Source: Escherichia coli
GTDB lineage: Bacteria > Pseudomonadota > Gammaproteobacteria > Enterobacterales > Enterobacteriaceae
Assembly: GCF_965641715.1 (NCBI RefSeq)
Contig: NZ_OZ282453.1
DNA length: 64,000 nucleotides
Reading direction: 5' to 3' (one strand)
Part shown: positions 39,999 through 61,727 of the stretch, in pieces
Numbering within the stretch: the first letter of the stretch is position 1
How the letters are laid out: each line of letters begins with the position of its first letter
Program-made: the position numbers and the translations under genes
Notes under the pieces: generated by a model
Seen by the model: the letters and a program-made list of their open reading frames with translations, nothing else
The model's database searches: none
Told to the model about the DNA's origin: nothing

Positions 39999-42671
39999 TT
40001 AACCCGGCACCTCGCTGTTGAAGACATAGAGCCTGCGGGGATTCATCTCTGGCGGGCGAATGGTTGTCTGGAGTTTGCCATCAGTGGAGGGCAGCAGGTA
40101 TCCACGATCTGCGCACAGACGCGCCACCTTGCGCGGGTCAAATCCCCTGCAGATTTCTTTCCAGCCGGACGGCATGACATAAAACGTAGTGACAGCTTCC
40201 GTGCCCTGCGCGGTACTGCCTTTCTCCACCCTGCGCCAGCCCACCATATTGGCGGGGCGGTTGCGCTCGTCATACCAGTCTGCAAAGCGGCTGTACTGAT
40301 TCGCGGTAAAGAAACTGCGAACCTGCTCCAGTGCGGCGATATCTTCCTGATTGGCGGTGTGCCCGCGCTCTTTCAGCCATGCGTTCAGGCAGACGCGGGT
40401 TGCCCGCAATGCTTCACCCTCAGGCCAGCCGGTGATACCCTGACGGGTTGCCAGTTCACCTGCCATCGCCACCAGTGCAAAGCGGTTCACAGCCCGGCCC
40501 ACCTGATTGCCTGCATCTTTCGGAGTCAGGGCGGCAGCATATTCCTTCATCAGCGATTTTGCCTGTGCCGTTAGTCCGTTAAGATCAGCGGTCAGTGCTT
40601 TCAGCCACTCCCGGAACGGCGAACCGTAGTAGCAGGACGTGGCCCATTCAAGATGCTCTGCCAGAGCCTTGCCGCTGTCGAAGCCGTGCAGCTCCTCAAA
40701 AACGCCAAACTTCCCGGAATCGCTGGGGATCTGGATCATCCTGACTTCCATCCCGGCAAAAGTACGCTCACCGGCCTTTGCCGCATGTTCGGTCAGAGAT
40801 AACTCGCCAGTTGAAAAGAACAACAGGCGCCACTGCTTACGGGTACGCAGTTCACCGTCCGTACCGGCACGACCCTTGCCCTGACCGTTTGCCAGCATGT
40901 AGGCGATATTGCCTGCCTCGCGTCCGTCAACTTCCCGGATCTCATCAAGCATCATGGCGGCATCGTTGCGGCGGCTGGCACATCCCTCCAGCGCGTTGCC
41001 GGTGGCCCGCCATGTCTGCCAGTAGTCAGGCCCGCCGCAGACGGAGGTTGCCGCTTTCATGGTGGTGGTCTTACCGTCTGTCGATTCCCCTTTGAGGTGG
41101 TAGCCGCCGCCGTCCATACCAACCAGCCGTAACAGTGGTGCAGCAAAGGCCAGGCTGACAGCAAATGCCACGCGGGAGTTGCCGGTACAGTAGCGGGATA
41201 CGTTCTCCCGCCATTCCTCTGTTGTGCCCGACACGCGGAAATCACGCCCCTGCACGGAAGTGGTCTGGAGAATGACACCCTCTGCACCTTCACCGCTGAC
41301 CTCATCCTGCAGGACGTAAACCTGACCATGCCAGCCAGTACGGCTGACGCAGGTCACGCGACGTTCCGGTTTACACAGTGAGATATATTCCATCAGGCGT
41401 GCGCGTGCCTCACCGGTGGTGCTGATATAAGACAGCCCGTTAACAAGCAGTACCCGGCGCAGTTCCTCACCACTGCCGCTCAGCATTTCCATCGGCATCG
41501 CCCAGCGGCGACGCTCACCCCACGTATCTTCCCATTCCAGCAGTCGTCCGAAGTTACCGCCATCGGCATCGCAGGTGATTGCCGTCACGCGCAGCGGGCT
41601 GCATATTTTGACGTTCTGGATCTCCGTCTCACCGTTGCGCTGTACCTGCTTTTCATACCAGAGATATTCCTGGGTAAGACGGAACCCGTGCGGCAGTTGC
41701 GTGCGGCCTTCCCCGCACAGTACCAGACCGTTGCGAAAGGCTTCACGGGCACGGGTAATACCGTGCTCCCGATGAAAGTCATTCCAGTCAGCCTTAATCT
41801 CTCCTGGTGGCAGCGTCATCCAGCCGCCAACAGCTTTTGCCGCCCGTTCAGCAAAGGCTCTGCCGGGATTCTCCCCCCCGTCCTGAAAATCGTTATCACC
41901 GGCGATGATAATTTTTACCTCAGGCCAGCGTGCCCGCAGCGACTGCGCCACATTGGGCAGGTTGCCCGCAGATATGGCAGCCACTACGCATCCGGCAGTG
42001 AGCTGGCTTACCGTCAGCGCCGTAGCGTAACCTTCGGTAATCACCACCTGTACCGGTGGTTCAGACGGTAACGGGCTGAGCGACACAAACGCGCCTTTCA
42101 TCGTGCTGCCGGGCAGTATGCTTTTTTCACCCGTCGGGGCGATAAGCTGTGCACCGGTCACGGCTCCGGTGTTGGTCGTGAGTGGTAACAGCAGGGAACC
42201 AGCAGGAAAATCCTTACCGCTGATATGCTGCACGCTTCCGGTCAGAGAGGCCGGGTATCCGGCGAACCCTTTTCCTGCCAGATAGGCACTTTCTCCCGTG
42301 TGGCTCTCTTTCATCAGCGTCGCCACGGTAAGGCTCATGTCGCGTTTAGGGGCTTTTTGTCTGGCAGGCTTAACAGGCAGTTCCTGCACATCCGGCACAT
42401 TAAGCACCTGCGCCACCTGCTGCGCAGCCTTTCTGACGTTGTAGCCGGTTACGAGCTTAACCAGATCCAGACCGTCACCATTGCCACACTGGCTGCAGAT
42501 CCACGTCCCGCGCCCGTCAAGGTCATCGAGGCGAAAACGATCCTTGCCCCCACATTTCGGGCAGGGACCGTGCCTGCCGTTTTCAGGTACATCAATACGC
42601 AGCATATGCAGAATAACGGGCCATTTCCCCCGCGCGGCGGCTGAAATCTGCGTAACCGTCTGTATTGTCAT
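39999..42671 (-). CDS. P4 alpha-like primase/helicase
   Basis: 890 aa; N-terminal zinc-binding CPKCGG...CSQCG; Walker A GESTDGKTT. Confidence 0.8.
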   Translation of the reverse strand: MTIQTVTQISAAARGKWPVILHMLRIDVPENGRHGPCPKCGGKDRFRLDDLDGRGTWICSQCGNGDGLDLVKLVTGYNVRKAAQQVAQVLNVPDVQELPVKPARQKAPKRDMSLTVATLMKESHTGESAYLAGKGFAGYPASLTGSVQHISGKDFPAGSLLLPLTTNTGAVTGAQLIAPTGEKSILPGSTMKGAFVSLSPLPSEPPVQVVITEGYATALTVSQLTAGCVVAAISAGNLPNVAQSLRARWPEVKIIIAGDNDFQDGGENPGRAFAERAAKAVGGWMTLPPGEIKADWNDFHREHGITRAREAFRNGLVLCGEGRTQLPHGFRLTQEYLWYEKQVQRNGETEIQNVKICSPLRVTAITCDADGGNFGRLLEWEDTWGERRRWAMPMEMLSGSGEELRRVLLVNGLSYISTTGEARARLMEYISLCKPERRVTCVSRTGWHGQVYVLQDEVSGEGAEGVILQTTSVQGRDFRVSGTTEEWRENVSRYCTGNSRVAFAVSLAFAAPLLRLVGMDGGGYHLKGESTDGKTTTMKAATSVCGGPDYWQTWRATGNALEGCASRRNDAAMMLDEIREVDGREAGNIAYMLANGQGKGRAGTDGELRTRKQWRLLFFSTGELSLTEHAAKAGERTFAGMEVRMIQIPSDSGKFGVFEELHGFDSGKALAEHLEWATSCYYGSPFREWLKALTADLNGLTAQAKSLMKEYAAALTPKDAGNQVGRAVNRFALVAMAGELATRQGITGWPEGEALRATRVCLNAWLKERGHTANQEDIAALEQVRSFFTANQYSRFADWYDERNRPANMVGWRRVEKGSTAQGTEAVTTFYVMPSGWKEICRGFDPRKVARLCADRGYLLPSTDGKLQTTIRPPEMNPRRLYVFNSEVPG

Positions 42672-43051
42672 ACTTCCCCCTGATACAACGTCACACCAGT
42701 ACTGCAGAAGTCATCAAAGGTCGCCGGAAGCGTGCGGTACATCTCCGCCATTACTTCACAGCCGCGCGCGGTCAGTACCGGCGGCGCGGTCAGCAGTGAC
42801 GGCTCCAGCATGTCAGTCAGCAGTGCCAGCGCGGCAGCGGCGCCCTGTGCTTCGCCGTACTCGTTAATCAGTGCGCACTCGATATGCAGCGCAATGGCCA
42901 TTTCAATACGCTCCACCGTCAGGCTGTGCGGACCATACTGATCACTGCCAGTTTCGTTCAGCATTTTCTGCCGCCATGCTGAAGCAATAGCCCGCCGGTA
43001 AAGCGCGGTTGTCATTTCTGCCGGGAAAATGGAAACCTGCGGCTGGTTCAT
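42668..43051 (-). CDS. Hypothetical protein, satellite left operon
   Basis: 127-aa ORF; 4-bp overlap with the alpha start and the upstream ORF. Confidence 0.4.
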   Translation of the reverse strand: MNQPQVSIFPAEMTTALYRRAIASAWRQKMLNETGSDQYGPHSLTVERIEMAIALHIECALINEYGEAQGAAAALALLTDMLEPSLLTAPPVLTARGCEVMAEMYRTLPATFDDFCSTGVTLYQGEV

Positions 43052-43332
43052 CTGGCACCTCCTTCAATCAGTGCACAGCTGTGCGCAATATCCGTCAAAT
43101 CTGCCCGCAGGTACTCCATCAGCGCGGCGACACCATGCGCACAGCCAGCGTCCAGTGCTCCGGCCTGAGACGGGTATTCAGAAAAGAGAAGCTGGAGCAT
43201 GTCGCAGGCATTTCTTGCGCGGGTCAGCTTTCCGAAACTGTCCTCTGACAACCCATAGGCAAAAGCACCGGTATTGTGTTTTTCAGGCAAAGTGTGGCCC
43301 TGAGCACCGTTGTGCCCGTTTGAAATATTCAT
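43048..43332 (-). CDS. Hypothetical protein, satellite left operon (epsilon-position)
   Basis: 94-aa ORF in an overlapping gene train. Confidence 0.4.
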   Translation of the reverse strand: MNISNGHNGAQGHTLPEKHNTGAFAYGLSEDSFGKLTRARNACDMLQLLFSEYPSQAGALDAGCAHGVAALMEYLRADLTDIAHSCALIEGGAR

Positions 43333-43363
43333 CGTGGATTACTCCGTTTTCAGCGGTATTTTG

Positions 43364-43723
43364 TCAGAGAAACTTTGAATAGTGACCGTCGTCAGGCTCA
43401 GCAGAACGCCGTATGCTACGCTCCCGCCAGCGGATAAATAGCACAGACGGATGCAGTGTCAGCGGGCCGGAACCACTACCGCCTGCAGGAGCTGGTGCAG
43501 GCTTAAAGAGCGGTACATCAAACAGGCGCGTATACCGCTGTTCAAACCATGCCAGAGGGCAGGAAGAAAGCTGGTTGTCGCTGTCATGACGTATCAGCAC
43601 TTCACAGCTGAATTCAGGATTAACCAGCGCCACAGAGGGCGAGGCTTCAATTAATCGGATAATCGTGACCGTCCAGCCACGTTCATGCTGCCAGCGTTCG
43701 CCGGGGTGCGGATAATTACGCAT
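43364..43723 (-). CDS. Hypothetical protein, satellite left operon
   Basis: 119 aa from the internal Met MRNYPHPGERW; ATG overlaps the stop of the upstream small ORF. Confidence 0.4.
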   Translation of the reverse strand: MRNYPHPGERWQHERGWTVTIIRLIEASPSVALVNPEFSCEVLIRHDSDNQLSSCPLAWFEQRYTRLFDVPLFKPAPAPAGGSGSGPLTLHPSVLFIRWRERSIRRSAEPDDGHYSKFL

Positions 43724-43892
43724 GTTCACCTCCGCAGGGAATGCGCCCGGCAAAGCTCAGTACATAATCCGGGGCAAGTCTTCGCCGCGCTGACCGCTCG
43801 TTATCTGCGGTGATCCTTAACATCACAGGACGGGCATTGCGTTGACTGCGGTTGATCGCCGCAAATAACCAGGTACACTTCTGTTTAGCCAT
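43716..43892 (-). CDS. Small basic protein (58 aa), first gene of the left operon
   Basis: ATG with AAGAGG Shine-Dalgarno 8 nt upstream; MAKQKCTWLFAAINRSQRNARPVMLRI...; not in the ORF track. Confidence 0.3.
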   Translation of the reverse strand: MAKQKCTWLFAAINRSQRNARPVMLRITADNERSARRRLAPDYVLSFAGRIPCGGEHA

Positions 43893-43983
43893 CTTCGTTA
43901 CCTCTTATAACGGTTGGTTAAATGCCCGATTTGTGTTCCCGCACAATCGGGCATTGCTTTTACAAGCGAACTATACTTACAAT

Positions 43984-44023
43984 GGTAATTACCATGTAGT
44001 CATCATATTCCAGGGTAATTACC
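43984..44023. promoter_or_regulatory. Two copies of the perfect 10-bp palindrome GGTAATTACC (43984-43993 and 44014-44023); candidate operators
   Basis: Read directly; between the divergent left operon and the RHH ORF. Confidence 0.4.
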
Positions 44024-44197
44024 ATGTCAACACCACAAGAGAAACGTTCCCCACCATTCCAAATGCGTCTTACCGACGATTTTAGGTTGCAACTCGAAAA
44101 AGAAATGCGCAAAGATGGAGATAGCGCGTTGGCAACTTGGATTAAAAGAATTTTACGTAAAGAACTACAATCACGCGGGATTGACCCTAAAGGTTAA
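44024..44197 (+). CDS. Ribbon-helix-helix (Arc/MetJ-like) candidate repressor, 57 aa
   Basis: MSTPQEKRSPPFQMRLTDDFRLQLEKEMRKDGDSALATWIKRILRKELQSRGIDPKG; beta-strand plus two helices pattern; not in the ORF track. Confidence 0.45.
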   Translation: MSTPQEKRSPPFQMRLTDDFRLQLEKEMRKDGDSALATWIKRILRKELQSRGIDPKG

Positions 44198-44229
44198 TCA
44201 GTTAAATATTACTAACTATCAATTAAGGC

Positions 44230-44520
44230 TTAGGGAGTAGGTGATAATCTATTCCCTTTATTAATTGCTCTTGCCTTATTTCTCATCCCCTCAAACTGTT
44301 GACCTGAGTTTTCTTCAAACCCATCTCGCCACTTATAATAATCAGCAGCGCGCCATCGGGACATCCGACCTATTTTTATAGGTTTTGGAAAGCGATTCAG
44401 AGAAATCAATCGATAAATCCATTTGTCACTTAATAAACAATCGGAAGTAATAAACTTCATATCGATCAGAGAATCCATTGAAGGTCGTTGCAAAGTAGTA
44501 TTATCATGTTTAGATAACAT
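44230..44520 (-). CDS. alpA: AlpA-family prophage regulatory protein
   Basis: Motif IYRLISLNRFPKPIKIGRMSRWRAADYYKW typical of AlpA; true start may be an internal Met. Confidence 0.65.
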   Translation of the reverse strand: MLSKHDNTTLQRPSMDSLIDMKFITSDCLLSDKWIYRLISLNRFPKPIKIGRMSRWRAADYYKWRDGFEENSGQQFEGMRNKARAINKGNRLSPTP

Positions 44521-44645
44521 TCATCATTCTCCGTTTATCTAAGTCTATTGGCTTCAACACGGAAAATTAAAACATAGGTTATAAATGAGAAAAATGTGAC
44601 TAATGAAAAAAATCCAAAATCATTAGTCACAATAATTGTTAACAT

Positions 44646-45470
44646 TTAGTTAAACTTAATGTTTTTCATGCAACTACGTAGCAAGCTAACAACAGTATCA
44701 TAGCTCAAAGGTGGTTCTCCGGTCTTAGGCCAGAACTCACTGGCATGTTGAAAAAGATAATCAGCTATCGCTGCTGGACTCTCTCTTCTTAGCCTCATAT
44801 CACGATGATAGAGCGAAATAATAGCCATGAGTATTTCAGTTCGAGGAACAGCATGTTTTTGTTTTTGCGCCTCAGATTGTGATTTATATTTATTGGCGTT
44901 TTTTATCCGTTTTTGTTCGCATAAGACTATATCAATGAATTTTTGAATCTGTACCTTTGTAATCCACAAAACCTCAAAAAGATAATAATTTTCTTTTTCA
45001 TCATAATTTACATAAAGAATTACCTTACAATTTATATTAGGCGTACCCGCCAGTAGAAAATGAATAGGCCAGGAATCCGGTTGCCCCTCATGCTTAACTA
45101 ACAGATCTTTATATTCATAATCAACAGCCCATAAACCGGATATAAAGCATCGAATAAAACCATTTTTATCAATTAAATTATTTTCATCAGGGATTCTTAT
45201 AGAGCTTAAGTCTGACAACATAATATTGCCATTTCTATCTCGTGGTAAATATTTCAGATTAGATAAGAACTCATCCAGTTGACCATCAATCTTCAAACCA
45301 CATGAAACATCATACTCATCATCATGGAATTCCATGCATAGCTCTACATCTCGTTCTCTGGCAAACCAGAGTATATCCTTTTCACTACAACCAATTTTTT
45401 CTGAAGCTTCATCCAACTGGTAGTAATCTCTGAGCAGAGAATCAGTATTATTAATTTTTAAAATATTCAT
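44646..45470 (-). CDS. Hypothetical protein (274 aa), AT-rich island cargo
   Basis: Long ORF; start overlaps the integrase stop by 4 bp; no motif recognised. Confidence 0.5.
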   Translation of the reverse strand: MNILKINNTDSLLRDYYQLDEASEKIGCSEKDILWFARERDVELCMEFHDDEYDVSCGLKIDGQLDEFLSNLKYLPRDRNGNIMLSDLSSIRIPDENNLIDKNGFIRCFISGLWAVDYEYKDLLVKHEGQPDSWPIHFLLAGTPNINCKVILYVNYDEKENYYLFEVLWITKVQIQKFIDIVLCEQKRIKNANKYKSQSEAQKQKHAVPRTEILMAIISLYHRDMRLRRESPAAIADYLFQHASEFWPKTGEPPLSYDTVVSLLRSCMKNIKFN

Positions 45471-46657
45471 TTATGAGTACCAATTAGCTCAGATAAATAA
45501 TTAGCATACCATTGCATCATTTCTCTTCTCCCTTCGAGATATTGGGCATGGTTATAAATTCCACGAATAGAGTTTTTGTCCGAATGAGCAAGCTGGGTTT
45601 CAATCCAAGCGCTGTTAAATCCTTTCTCATGTAGAATTGTACTCATCGTATGCCTGAAACCATGTCCCGTAACACGCCCTGCATATCCAATACGTTTAAA
45701 CACCTGATTGATGCTTGCTTCACTCATAAATTTGCTAGGATCGTTGCGTCCAGGGAACATCAGCGGGTAGTTCCCAGTTAGTTCTTTCAAACTTTTGAGA
45801 TGGGATAATGCTTGTTTTGGTAACGGGACAATATGGCTCCTACGCATTTTCATACGTTCTTTTGGGATCTCCCACACCGCATTATCAAAATCCACCTCTC
45901 GCCACTCACCTGCTCGTAGTTCTCCAGTTCGTAGACCTGTCAGGATAAGTAAATGCGCCCCCAACAATACAATTGGACTTCCTGAATAAGAATTAAGGGC
46001 ATTAAAGAACTCCGGTAGTTCGTTGGCTTTGAGGAATGGATAGTGGACTGCTTCATGTCCTTGCATCGCACTGGCAAGATCCGGTGCCGGATTGTAGATT
46101 GCCCTACCCGTTACGATGGCATAGCGAAAAACTTCACCGCATCGCTGACGGACTTTCTTCGCTTTCTCCATAGCGCCTCGAGCTTCTATCAACCTCAGAA
46201 CTTCAAGCAGTTCAAGGGGCTGAATATCAGCTATAGGTCTGTGCCCAATATGCGGAAAAATGTCTTTCTCAAATGCCTCAATGATGTCGGAAGCATAGCC
46301 CTCAGACCATTTGGATGATTTCATTTTGTGCCACTCTAACGCCACTTCTCTGAATGGGTTAAGTGTCTCAATCGCTGCGTTTAAAGCCTGCTTTTTGGCT
46401 TTTTTGACTTCGCCGGGATCTTCACCTGCTGCGAGTAGTTTCTTTGCGTCTTCTCGTTTTTGTCTGGCATCAGCAAGTGTGACTGTTGGATAAACACCAA
46501 AGGACAATCGTTTCTCTTTACCAGCAAAACGGTATTTCATACGCCAGTAACGCGAGCCATTAGGTTCGACCTGAAGGTATAGGCCACCTCCATCAAACAG
46601 CTTATAGCTCTTCTCTTTTCCTTTCGCAGCTTCAACCTTGCGGGCATTCAGCATCAT
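45467..46657 (-). CDS. int: Tyrosine integrase (P4-type), tRNA-adjacent
   Basis: N-terminal SYKLFDGGGLYLQVEPNGSRYWRMKYRF; C-terminal catalytic HxxR...Y (HGFRHT ... GIYNHAQYLEGR); ORF extends to 46726. Confidence 0.85.
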   Translation of the reverse strand: MMLNARKVEAAKGKEKSYKLFDGGGLYLQVEPNGSRYWRMKYRFAGKEKRLSFGVYPTVTLADARQKREDAKKLLAAGEDPGEVKKAKKQALNAAIETLNPFREVALEWHKMKSSKWSEGYASDIIEAFEKDIFPHIGHRPIADIQPLELLEVLRLIEARGAMEKAKKVRQRCGEVFRYAIVTGRAIYNPAPDLASAMQGHEAVHYPFLKANELPEFFNALNSYSGSPIVLLGAHLLILTGLRTGELRAGEWREVDFDNAVWEIPKERMKMRRSHIVPLPKQALSHLKSLKELTGNYPLMFPGRNDPSKFMSEASINQVFKRIGYAGRVTGHGFRHTMSTILHEKGFNSAWIETQLAHSDKNSIRGIYNHAQYLEGRREMMQWYANYLSELIGTHK

Positions 46658-46821
46658 TGGGGGCACATTTCCTAGACCGAACAGAACATGCCCCTGATTG
46701 TGCCCCCAACCGCGTGTTGATTTCAAGAGACAAGGGTTGACCTCAAACGTATGAAAACAACGTAATATATATGTTTTTAAATGATTTTGTTGATGTGGGT
46801 TGACTTGGGAAAACTAGGTGA

Positions 46822-54789: not shown

Positions 54790-55336
54790 TTATCCTTCGA
54801 TAAATGCCATCCCTGTAAACGTTCGTCGCGGGTTGCCACGTTCAATCTGGTGATGGAACATTCGCCGCTGCGATTTCAGCGCCGCGCTATTTTCCTGTTG
54901 CTGTTGCTCCAGCTTCCAGGCAATCAGCAATCGCGCCAGCCGTTTGTTAGCATGCTGGCTGCGTTCTGACTGAACCTTCACGCTAATCCCGGTTGCCAGA
55001 TGCGTGGCGCGTACCGCCGAGTCGGTTTTATTGACATGTTGACCGCCCGGCCCCGACGAACGCAGCGTGTCAGGATAACGCCCGGCTTCGGTTTCCAGCA
55101 CCGTTACCGCGACGTCTTGTCGGGTAAAAACGACCAACAGAGAAGAACGCTGCGCCAATCGGGTAGCCGCGTCCGGGGTGTAAATCTGGCATCCCCACTA
55201 CGCGCTGCATGTTGGGTAAATTTGCCGTGGTGTGTAATTGTTGGATCGCTAAACTCTCGATCCACAGGTCATCAGATGCGATGGTAAATACCGCATCGGA
55301 TAAGGGACGAATATATTTGCCCATGTACCATTCCAT
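54790..55336 (-). pseudogene. prfH: Remnant of an rtcB-like / prfH module: RtcB N-terminal fragment fused out of frame to the PrfH C-terminal part
   Basis: 55070-55336 encodes an RtcB-like N-terminus ([18 protein letters not shown]); 54790-55158 encodes the release-factor GGQ region ([10 protein letters not shown]); overlapping, frame-discordant ORFs. Confidence 0.55.
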
Positions 55337-55641: not shown

Positions 55642-56094
55642 TTAATGTTGCGGTTTATATCGCATATAAAAATTAGTAAACCAAGCTCCACGGCATTCAA
55701 CGCGCTGCTGCTTAACTGTCTGAAAACCATAACGTTCAAAAAAGGGTTTTGCGGTTATGCTGGCGTCCACCGTAAGTTCGGATTCAGACTTAATCAAAGG
55801 TTTTAACAAAGCGCTGGCAACCCCACGGCGGGTGTATTCAGGGTCAACAAATAACATATCGATATAATGTTCAATGCGGGAAATAAAACCAACCGGTTGT
55901 GCATTAATGACTGCAACCCGCACTTGTGATTTCGCGAGTTTCTCCTTCCAGCGAGATTCGTCAATCTGCGCCCAGGCGGCAATTTGTTGTGGTGAATAAT
56001 GCTGACTGGCGGTCATCATAACCGCTCTAATGAAAATAGCGCATAGTTGCTGAAAATCGCCAGGCTGATAGTTTCTTATTTGTATGTTATTCAT
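55642..56094 (-). CDS. yafP: GNAT-family acetyltransferase
   Basis: 150 aa from MNNIQIRNYQPGDFQQL; the ORF track includes a 20-codon upstream extension. Confidence 0.85.
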   Translation of the reverse strand: MNNIQIRNYQPGDFQQLCAIFIRAVMMTASQHYSPQQIAAWAQIDESRWKEKLAKSQVRVAVINAQPVGFISRIEHYIDMLFVDPEYTRRGVASALLKPLIKSESELTVDASITAKPFFERYGFQTVKQQRVECRGAWFTNFYMRYKPQH

Positions 56095-56123
56095 AATGTA
56101 AGTTTTGTTTTGAATACCCGCAT
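56091..56123 (-). pseudogene. yafO: yafO toxin remnant: 10 codons (MRVFKTKLTL, stop) between yafN and yafP
   Basis: ATG 2 bp after the yafN stop encodes MRVFKTKL (as the K-12 YafO N-terminus, by recollection) then terminates; the ~130-codon body is absent. Confidence 0.5.
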
Positions 56124-56125
56124 CC

Positions 56126-56419
56126 TTATTCCTTAAAGTCATTGAAATCATCATCCGTCATATCATTAAGATATTGTTCAGCGCGGCGTGTAATTTCCTC
56201 TAATCTTGCAGCACTTGGACGGAAGCGCGCCTTTATGGGCTTTTTCTCCTCTTGTTCAGCAAGCATGTCCATTAACGCTTCGAATGCGCTGGCACTTAAG
56301 AGATATCCTGCGGGGCGATTATTAGAAAGAACCGCAACCGGTTGATCAATAAAGTATTTAGCTGGGTTTTTACGTAACTCAGTAATATTGACCGATTTTT
56401 CAGCGAGAATTCGATGCAT
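56126..56419 (-). CDS. yafN: Type II antitoxin YafN
   Basis: 97 aa MHRILAEKSVNITELRKNPAKYF... Confidence 0.85.
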   Translation of the reverse strand: MHRILAEKSVNITELRKNPAKYFIDQPVAVLSNNRPAGYLLSASAFEALMDMLAEQEEKKPIKARFRPSAARLEEITRRAEQYLNDMTDDDFNDFKE

Positions 56420-56470: not shown

Positions 56471-57526
56471 TCATAATCCCAGCACCAGTTGTCTTTCCAT
56501 TTGAGGGTCAAGCAACGTCACATGCAGCCCCACCAGTCGCACACCGCGCCCACCGCGGCGTTCATCCCAGGTTTTACGCGCGGTGGCGATTAGATCAGCT
56601 TTATTCAGCCGCGGCCAGACGTGCTCCTGGGTGGTTTGCTGAAAATCGTCGAACTTTAATTTCACCCCCTGGCGAGCAATCAGTAAATCAGGTTTTACCT
56701 TTGCCAGACGGCGTTCAAGTTCCGGATACAGCCGCTCGATAATCGCTTCACATTCAGACCAGTGATGAATATCTTCCGCCATCGTGCGTTCCACGCCGAC
56801 GGATTTTCGTAACCGTTCGCTGTTAACATCGCGCTCGTCAATCCCCTGACTACGCTCCCACAAAATGCGGCCAAATTTGCCAAAGCGTTTAAGCAGAATC
56901 ACCAGATCACACTTTTGTACATCACCGCAGGTCCGCAGCCCCATCGCTTCCAGTTTTGCCGCCGAGACTTTGCCGACGCCGGGGATTTTTGCCAGCGGTA
57001 AGGTTTGCAGAAATGCCGGAACTTCTGCCGGAGTAATCACAAACTGGCCGTTGGGTTTATTCATGTCGGAGGCGATTTTGGCGAGAAACTTTACTGGTGC
57101 CACGCCCGCAGACGCCGTCAGTTGCAGCTCGCTGAAAATCGTCTGGCGGATTTCCTGGGCGATGAGGGTCGCAGAACCGTGGCAATGGACGCTGTCGGTG
57201 ACATCGAGATAAGCCTCATCCAGTGACAACGGCTCAATGCGCGAGGTGTAGCGCGAGAAGATTTCACGGATATGATTTGAGGCTTCTTTGTAGGCGTCAA
57301 AGCGCCCCGGAAGCAAGGTGAGATGTGGGCATAATTTGAGCGCCATCCCTGTCGGCATAGCGCTGCGTACGCCAAATTTACGCGCGGGATAATTGGCGGT
57401 GCTGATCACCCCCCGACGTTCGCGGCTGCCGCCAATAGCAATAGGGATATCGCGCAGGGCGGGATTGTCGCGCATCTCCACTGCGGCGAAAAAGCAGTCC
57501 ATATCCACATGAATGATTTTACGCAT
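56471..57526 (-). CDS. dinB: DNA polymerase IV (Y-family)
   Basis: 351 aa [22 protein letters not shown]... Confidence 0.95.
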
Positions 57527-60066: not shown

Positions 60067-60096
60067 TTGAGGAGGCTATATAAGGGCCAGGACCGT

Positions 60097-60184
60097 CCCC
60101 TCGCCCCTTTGGGGAGAGGGTTAGGGTGAGGGGAAAGTGCGCGCTGAGCCCCTCACCCCGGCCCTCTCCCCAAAGGGGCGAGGG
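60097..60184. repeat. Imperfect palindromic element (~34-bp arms) between convergent fhiA and yafL
   Basis: cccctcgcccctttggggagagggttagggtgagggg versus cccctcaccccggccctctccccaaaggggcgaggg; read directly. Confidence 0.4.
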
Positions 60185-60227
60185 AGAAAATCGTGTACGA
60201 CTTTAGCTTTTTCGCGGTATTGCCGTC

Positions 60228-60977: not shown

Positions 60978-61186
60978 TCTCAATAATGGCTGGTCATGCA
61001 TTGATGTTGCAGTGTATCCTGGCCCGTACCTGAACAAACTTAATAAACCATTATTATAAAATTAATAAATATATTTCAGTTTATTATGTAAAAACATCCG
61101 TTTATTAAATTACTCATGGATTGTCGCTGTTGCTCATTTGAGCTACAATTCAAGCTGAATAAATATACAGCACAGGAGATACCCCA

Positions 61187-61447
61187 ATGGCTGCTAACGC
61201 GTTTGTTCGCGCCCGAATCGATGAAGATCTGAAGAATCAGGCGGCGGACGTACTGGCCGGGATGGGGCTGACCATCTCTGACCTGGTTCGCATAACCCTC
61301 ACAAAGGTCGCGCGTGAAAAGGCATTGCCGTTTGATTTACGCGAGCCTAATCAATTAACCATTCAATCAATCAAAAACAGCGAAGCTGGCGTTGATGTTC
61401 ATAAGGCCAAAGACGCCGATGATTTATTTGATAAATTAGGAATTTAA
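61187..61447 (+). CDS. dinJ: Type II antitoxin DinJ
   Basis: 86 aa MAANAFVRARIDEDLKNQAADVLAGMGLTISD... Confidence 0.9.
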   Translation: MAANAFVRARIDEDLKNQAADVLAGMGLTISDLVRITLTKVAREKALPFDLREPNQLTIQSIKNSEAGVDVHKAKDADDLFDKLGI

Positions 61448-61449
61448 AT

Positions 61450-61727
61450 ATGATTCAAAGGGATATTGAATACTCGGACAATTTTCAAAGGATGTAAAAC
61501 TTGCACAAAAGCGTCATAAGGATATGAATAAATTGAAATATCTTATGACGCTTCTTATCAATAATACTTTACCGCTTCCAGCTGTTTATAAAGACCACCC
61601 GCTGCAAGGTTCATGGAAAGGTTATCGCGATGCTCATGTCGAACCGGACTGGCTCCTGATTTACAAACTTACCGATAAACTTTTACGATTTGAGAGAACT
61701 GGAACTCACGCGGCGCTCTTTGGGTAA
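61450..61727 (+). pseudogene. yafQ: yafQ toxin gene with an apparent -1 frameshift (split into a 15-codon N-terminal ORF and a C-terminal ORF from 61476)
   Basis: ATG at 61450 gives MIQRDIEYSDNFQRM then stop at 61495; the conserved remainder (GQFSKDVKLAQKRHKDMNKLKYL...) is in the +2 frame; consistent with loss of one G in the tcggga run near 61476. Confidence 0.55.

Follow-up and report, generated by a model that had tools for sequence, protein, structure and literature searches.

yafQ is interrupted by a one-nucleotide deletion downstream of dinJ

Does the dinJ–yafQ operon of this Escherichia coli chromosome still encode a toxin, or has it been reduced to its antitoxin? The question arises from a stretch of 64,000 nt (hereafter, the window) in which the operon is otherwise laid out much as in K-12: like its K-12 counterpart, it lies between yafL and dpaA (yafK), operon layout and LexA box are alike, and 701 nt of DNA align at 99.3% identity. 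The toxin, YafQ, belongs to the RelE/ParE superfamily and is an mRNA endonuclease that depends on the ribosome (PDB 4ML2, 4Q2U; TIGR00053 / PF15738). As set out below, the window very probably holds a chromosomal type II toxin–antitoxin operon whose toxin gene has recently become a pseudogene. The toxin gene comprises the following parts.

61450–61727, plus strand: yafQ pseudogene, the whole former CDS, 278 nt rather than 279 (one 1-nt gap and no further indel relative to K-12 and E. coli C)
61450–61497, plus strand: 5′ fragment ORF from the native start, 15 codons (MIQRDIEYSDNFQRM) followed by TAA (translation)
61476–61477, plus strand: site of the 1-bp deletion, GG as opposed to GGG in K-12, E. 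coli C and all complete genomes among the full-length matches listed (alignments)
61476–61727, plus strand: out-of-frame yafQ remainder, residues 10–92, 83 codons, encoding K14, K17, K21, R22, K24, H50, H63, D67, H87 and F91 (translation; TIGR00053; residue roles from PMC4652777)

The yafQ start codon, ATG at 61450, is located 3 nt past the dinJ stop codon. Translation from this ATG is terminated by the TAA at 61495–61497, and only 9 of the 15 encoded residues are native to YafQ. The toxin frame can be read from 61476 onwards, as GQFSKDVKLAQKRHKDMNKLKYL...THAALFG, up to a stop codon at 61725–61727. Next to the antitoxin stop, where an intact toxin gene would present an uninterrupted ORF of ~92 codons, yafQ thus offers 15 codons and a 1-nt deletion. 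In a 561-nt alignment against K-12 MG1655 and E. coli C, the sole indel was found at yafQ codons 9/10, where the window reads TCGGA and both references read TCGGGA; a few substitutions were present as well, including those underlying Y12F and I69L relative to K-12 YafQ. K-12 yafQ, in other words, keeps the G at which the window frame is broken after nine native residues.

What lies behind the break is still recognizable as YafQ. In a profile search, the remainder (61476–61724) matched the family model TIGR00053 with 110.4 bits against a cutoff of 87.25. Restoring the G yields a protein that aligns to PDB 4ML2 with E = 3.7e-60 and is identical to the K-12 YafQ of the crystal structure at 90 of 92 positions, the exceptions being the two substitutions named above. 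In YafQ, H50, H63, D67 and H87 are catalytic and F91 positions the mRNA (PMC4652777); all five are encoded in the remainder (numbered as in the restored protein), unlinked to the native start codon.

These results bear out the initial annotation of this DNA, which had proposed that the ATG after dinJ ends within 15 codons at a stop at 61495, that a RelE-like remainder continues in another frame from about 61476, and that one G had been lost from a tcggga run. The alignment with K-12 yafQ confirms the last point and places the G run inside 61474–61478. With one G lost from the GGG run at codons 9/10, ribosomes starting at ATG 61450 would meet TAA after 15 codons, and the resulting 15-residue peptide would presumably be devoid of toxin activity. 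Judged by its sequence, yafQ is here filed as a pseudogene of the YafQ family and not as a functional member.

The antitoxin gene and its promoter are retained

The upstream half of the operon shows no such damage.

61187–61447, plus strand: dinJ, intact, 86 codons (complete ORF; TIGR02384 RelB_DinJ, 83.7 bits against a cutoff of 45.65)
61155–61170, plus strand: LexA-type box CTG-N10-CAG, CTGAATAAATATACAG, in the dinJ promoter (pattern match)

Along the gene, the alignment revealed zero nucleotide differences between dinJ and its counterpart in E. coli C, in agreement with the initial call of an intact dinJ, and a by-eye comparison found the promoter-proximal sequence to equal that of K-12. 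The intact ORF, the model match and the LexA-type box together place the gene in the DinJ family. LexA binds the dinJ promoter (PMC4996492, PMC8138530), and DinJ represses its own operon alone, unaffected by YafQ (PMC8138530); it has also been reported to repress cspE and thereby lower RpoS (PMC4996492). Because the published repression by DinJ needs no YafQ, the protein probably continues to be produced and to repress its own promoter in the lineage of the window, where it may also keep the reported effect on cspE and RpoS. The operon should therefore still yield a working regulator, DinJ.

The frameshift allele is rare and appears to be recent

To gauge the spread of the allele, we turned to complete genomes. 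A 67-nt query centred on the deletion had no exact full-length match in any of 5,426 complete RefSeq E. coli genomes; among the full-length matches listed, all span 68 nt, that is, they contain the extra G. The dinJ–yafQ locus itself is held by 3,325 of the 5,426. In the other ~2,100 (~39%), dinJ–yafQ is absent and the match is confined to the 58 nt that follow the locus. An exact-pattern scan of GTDB species-representative genomes for the 41-nt frameshift junction returned 0 matches; the lineage carrying it is no species representative. Identity between the window and the best complete E. coli genome among the 5,426 is ~98.2–98.6% over stretches of 24–25 kb, implying that this lineage is without a complete RefSeq representative. 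The DinB protein allele of the window is very common (30,609 blocks of the collection), and the ten places listed for it are not close relatives of the window.

Two comparisons bear on the age of the lesion. Once the G is restored, YafQ has exactly the sequence of an intact allele for which 4,537 blocks of the collection are listed, and the G-restored dinJ–yafQ DNA is 1 nt away from two intact loci. Such identity or near-identity to intact alleles marks the lesion as recent and free of secondary decay, and the absence of the deletion from 5,426 complete genomes makes it a private lesion of one clone. A literature search turned up no specific description of a yafQ frameshift or pseudogene in nature.

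A second toxin gene, yafO, is missing next to dinB

The initial annotation had further claimed that yafO is deleted, so that both toxin genes around dinB have been hit while the antitoxin genes are retained. The yafNO module in the window reads as follows.

56471–57526, minus strand: dinB
56126–56419, minus strand: yafN, intact, 97 codons, downstream of dinB (NF007300 equivalog, 196.7 bits against a cutoff of 99, full length)
56091–56123, minus strand: yafO remnant ATGCGGGTATTCAAAACAAAACTTACATTATGA (MRVFKTKLTL, then a stop), 10 codons (373-bp deletion)

The claim holds for both modules: yafN and dinJ are intact, and 373 bp comprising most of yafO are missing relative to a K-12-like genome. The remnant is fused to the start of yafP, its stop codon overlapping the yafP start at 56094. 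A YafN–YafO module would have both genes downstream of dinB; here, the second is reduced to 10 codons. The gene order dinB–yafN–(yafO)–yafP is common to the window and to K-12, but K-12 has both genes of the module. E. coli C shows a further natural arrangement, in which dinB is followed by yafP without yafN and yafO, whereas the window lacks yafO only and carries yafN as an orphan. Natural variation at the yafNO site is large.

Apart from the yafQ lesion, yafO was lost through this separate 373-bp deletion. The same yafO junction was found in 1 of 5,426 complete genomes, that of strain GF43 (NZ_CP172127.1), whose flanking sequence shares 96–98% identity with that of the window and which lacks dinJ–yafQ. 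A junction shared only with GF43, at this level of identity, suggests that the yafO deletion is old and was moved by recombination, or that it is recurrent. GF43 was also considered as an informant on the yafQ frameshift and rejected, being only 96–98% identical and having no dinJ–yafQ.

Toxin loss fits ordinary decay of toxin–antitoxin modules

Degenerate toxin–antitoxin loci with orphan antitoxins follow a general pattern in which the toxin decays first: loss of the toxin is harmless, whereas loss of the antitoxin ahead of its toxin is harmful. Under neutrality, one would consequently expect the toxin to decay first, since selection acts against losing the antitoxin before it. A role of chromosomal antitoxins in ‘anti-addiction’ has also been put forward as an idea. 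As in other degenerate loci, two modules that are neighbours in the window each have a disabled toxin gene beside an intact cognate antitoxin gene and promoter. The losses of yafQ and yafO fit the usual asymmetry, and the case is one of ordinary toxin–antitoxin decay.

The yafQ allele of the window has been broken elsewhere, too. Two other E. coli assemblies (L003 and L010) carry the same F12/L69 allele with a nonsense mutation, Q20* (CAA to TAA; e.g. GCA_012415905.1), and a third (L005; GCA_020421745.1) carries it with an IS1 insertion after ...GGATG. Both disruptions share with the window a residual ORF of 67 aa but lack the G deletion, and are hence independent lesions; where visible in these three contigs, the end of dinJ is still found upstream. 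Several shortened YafQ entries also fall within the 90% protein cluster. Differing lesions across assemblies imply that yafQ has been lost repeatedly. Among contigs with the 67-aa ORF, some are interrupted within or close to yafQ, one of them with an IS1 end, which raised the suspicion of Shigella. This was rejected: in the window no IS1 end was found, fdeC and the ecp operon are intact there, and the GenBank source of the 85-aa product that can be read from the frameshifted gene is given as E. coli. As a separate observation, contigs L006–L009 and L011 begin inside yafQ at varying positions, and L008, L009 and L011 start 1 nt before ATG 61524.

The alternative that fares best is that toxin loss with DinJ and YafN kept has been selected, either for their service as regulators (DinJ acting on cspE and RpoS) or for anti-addiction against YafQ- and YafO-like toxins of mobile elements. 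Two neighbouring modules that each lost the toxin and retained the antitoxin, the independent breakage of one yafQ allele (by the nonsense mutation in L003 and L010 and by IS1 in L005), and the toxin-independent DinJ regulation in the literature (PMC4996492, PMC8138530) would all accord with it. Yet toxin-first loss is already predicted under neutrality, and the lesion is too recent to reveal purifying selection on dinJ. Moreover, DinJ is dispensable, given that ~39% of the complete genomes are without dinJ–yafQ and that dinJ is missing from GF43, which carries the yafO deletion. We therefore regard selection as unlikely; nothing observed requires it to explain the orphan antitoxins. An extended version, in which the module has been rewired such that DinJ and YafN are retained under selection as regulators or as immunity against plasmid and phage toxins, possibly along with traces of YafQ(G10D,Q11N) produced by a −1 slip, strikes us as quite improbable.

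Little or no toxin is predicted to be made from the remainder

Decay of the toxin gene, the reading we prefer, would be incomplete if the ribosome could still reach the toxin frame. Three features of the remainder are relevant here.

61470–61727, plus strand: 85-codon reading from an ATA, the ‘YafQ toxin’ of GenBank drafts (e.g. EEW8735170.1)
61509–61556, plus strand: RNA hairpin inside the yafQ CDS, a 16-bp stem with one bulge that buries ATG 61524 (MFE −18.7 kcal/mol, z = −4.06)
61524–61727, plus strand: first canonical start in the toxin frame, 67 codons, residues 26–92 (ORF list)

On this alternative, toxin would still be made at a low level by one of three routes, leaving the module attenuated rather than dead. 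All told, we consider it very doubtful, even though every catalytic residue is still encoded.

The first route is a −1 slip of tRNA-Phe on T-TTT-C (61482–61486), which would give full-length YafQ with the changes G10D and Q11N. The run of four T does lie within the overlap window (61470–61494) in which a −1 shift restores the frame. However, the zero frame contains no X-XXY-YYZ heptamer, merely T-TTT-C, and the only strong hairpin begins 22 nt past the T run, outside the usual 5–9 nt, and is the same in intact K-12 yafQ. Nor is the arrangement conserved, as none of the 3,325 complete genomes with dinJ–yafQ has the deletion. Of the hallmarks of a programmed −1 frameshift site (heptamer, structure 5–9 nt downstream, conservation), none was found at yafQ.

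The second route is initiation at ATA 61470, ~8 nt downstream of an AAGGGA motif, which would yield the 85-aa product annotated in GenBank; a short YafQ lacking only residues 1–8 may be made in this way. In E. coli, however, translation starts very poorly from ATA. The 85-aa reading is an annotation choice and not evidence of expression.

The third route is re-initiation at ATG 61524, which is the first ATG, GTG or TTG in the toxin frame past the upstream TGA and would produce 67 aa. The YafQ N-terminus assumed in the initial annotation is correct: K-12 YafQ has 92 aa and begins MIQRDIEYSGQYSKDVK, and ATG 61524 yields residues 26–92 rather than a full-length protein. The short ORF ends only 27 nt before this codon, a distance that would favour re-initiation. 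ATG 61524 is, however, base-paired in the hairpin, and the nearest AAGGA motif ends 1 nt before it, a bad spacing for a Shine–Dalgarno-like element. None of 200 shuffled sequences (0/200) folds as well as the hairpin at 61509–61556. The hairpin sequence is identical in K-12 and therefore belongs to normal yafQ; in its own right, it is a strong structure within the coding sequence of this gene. With a badly spaced motif and a start codon held in a stable hairpin, little or nothing is likely to be made from the remainder by this route.

Any such product would in addition be compromised. The protein from ATG 61524 would lack both the N-terminal segment (residues 1–8) and the entire helix alpha1; the basic patches of this helix, K14/K17 and K21/R22/K24, are encoded upstream of this start codon. 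Alanine substitutions in these patches (K14A/K17A and K21A/R22A/K24A) raise the Kd for the 70S ribosome to >15 µM, and the alpha1 patch mutants are relieved of toxicity, with growth regained only partly (PMC4652777). A 67-aa product that misses alpha1, which is required for 70S binding, would thus be expected to bind ribosomes poorly. From the sequence together with this published mutagenesis, we infer that yafQ is inactivated.

The deletion recurs in independent assemblies

Decay presupposes that the missing G is missing from the chromosome, and the initial annotation had allowed that resequencing might restore it. Independent assemblies instead carry the deletion. An exact look-up of the YafL protein led to GCA_013072045.1, which matches the window at 100% identity across 8,531 nt, missing G included. 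GCA_018013555.1 has the same yafQ deletion and 1 SNP relative to the window in 8,531 nt, a difference that marks it as a separate isolate, and GCA_017782005.1 has the same deletion and is identical to the window over 2,901 nt. The 41-nt frameshift junction was present in all three of these GenBank drafts when read base by base. The 85-aa frameshifted product, looked up as a protein, was found on 13 contigs. When ~49 kb were set against two complete genomes, annotated CDSs showed no 1-nt indel other than that in yafQ; the remaining indels fall between genes, except for a 3-nt change in fdeC that keeps the frame and a 22-nt insertion within a small hypothetical gene.

A sequencing or assembly error, by which the true genome would read GGG and yafQ would be intact, is accordingly an extremely remote prospect: length changes in short homopolymers are a common type of error and the deletion is seen in no complete RefSeq genome, but it recurs in at least three separately deposited assemblies, one of them from another isolate by its SNP, and in a product found on 13 contigs, zero other 1-nt indels occur in annotated CDSs over ~49 kb, and GGG is too short for a typical error hotspot. 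The independent assemblies, the clean assembly of the window and the short GGG run are what make such an error so unlikely, and the yafQ deletion is thus real and inherited, fixed in one clonal lineage.

Consequences for annotation

GenBank drafts call the frameshifted gene an 85-aa ‘mRNA interferase toxin YafQ’ from the ATA (EEW8735170.1, EFO3605840.1, EFT2867955.1, EFT3133279.1) and not a pseudogene. As a result of this intact-toxin annotation, annotation-based toxin–antitoxin surveys will score the locus as intact. The lineage represents a clonal E. coli group without both toxins beside dinB, YafQ and YafO, in which the antitoxins are kept, and its isolates can serve as natural controls in studies of what DinJ and YafN do independently of their toxins. 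The value of the finding lies mainly in annotation correction and strain biology, and little beyond.

Other features of the window

Several further differences from reference strains were noticed along the window. Between the lfhA remnant and yafL (60067–60227), rayT (yafM) is absent and ~160 bp of REP-like sequence are found instead; the corresponding position is taken by rayT in K-12 and by a hicB gene in E. coli C. At ~23401, in a small hypothetical CDS between yagU and paoA, the window has a 22-bp insertion relative to strain NCTC10444 that looks like a local duplication (GTTGTCTA...GTTGTCTA). Remnants of prfH and rtcB resembling those of K-12 occupy 54790–55336, a region that is ~170 bp shorter than in the K-12-like strain LR-64-2; the two alignments to either side share the 19 nt at 55054–55072. 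Finally, an integrated island lies beside tRNA-Thr, upstream of proA (39999–46726). It resembles a P4-like satellite, with genes for a tyrosine integrase, AlpA, an Icd-like protein and a TOPRIM/DUF927 primase, and is shared by a few commensal strains, for example LR-64-2.
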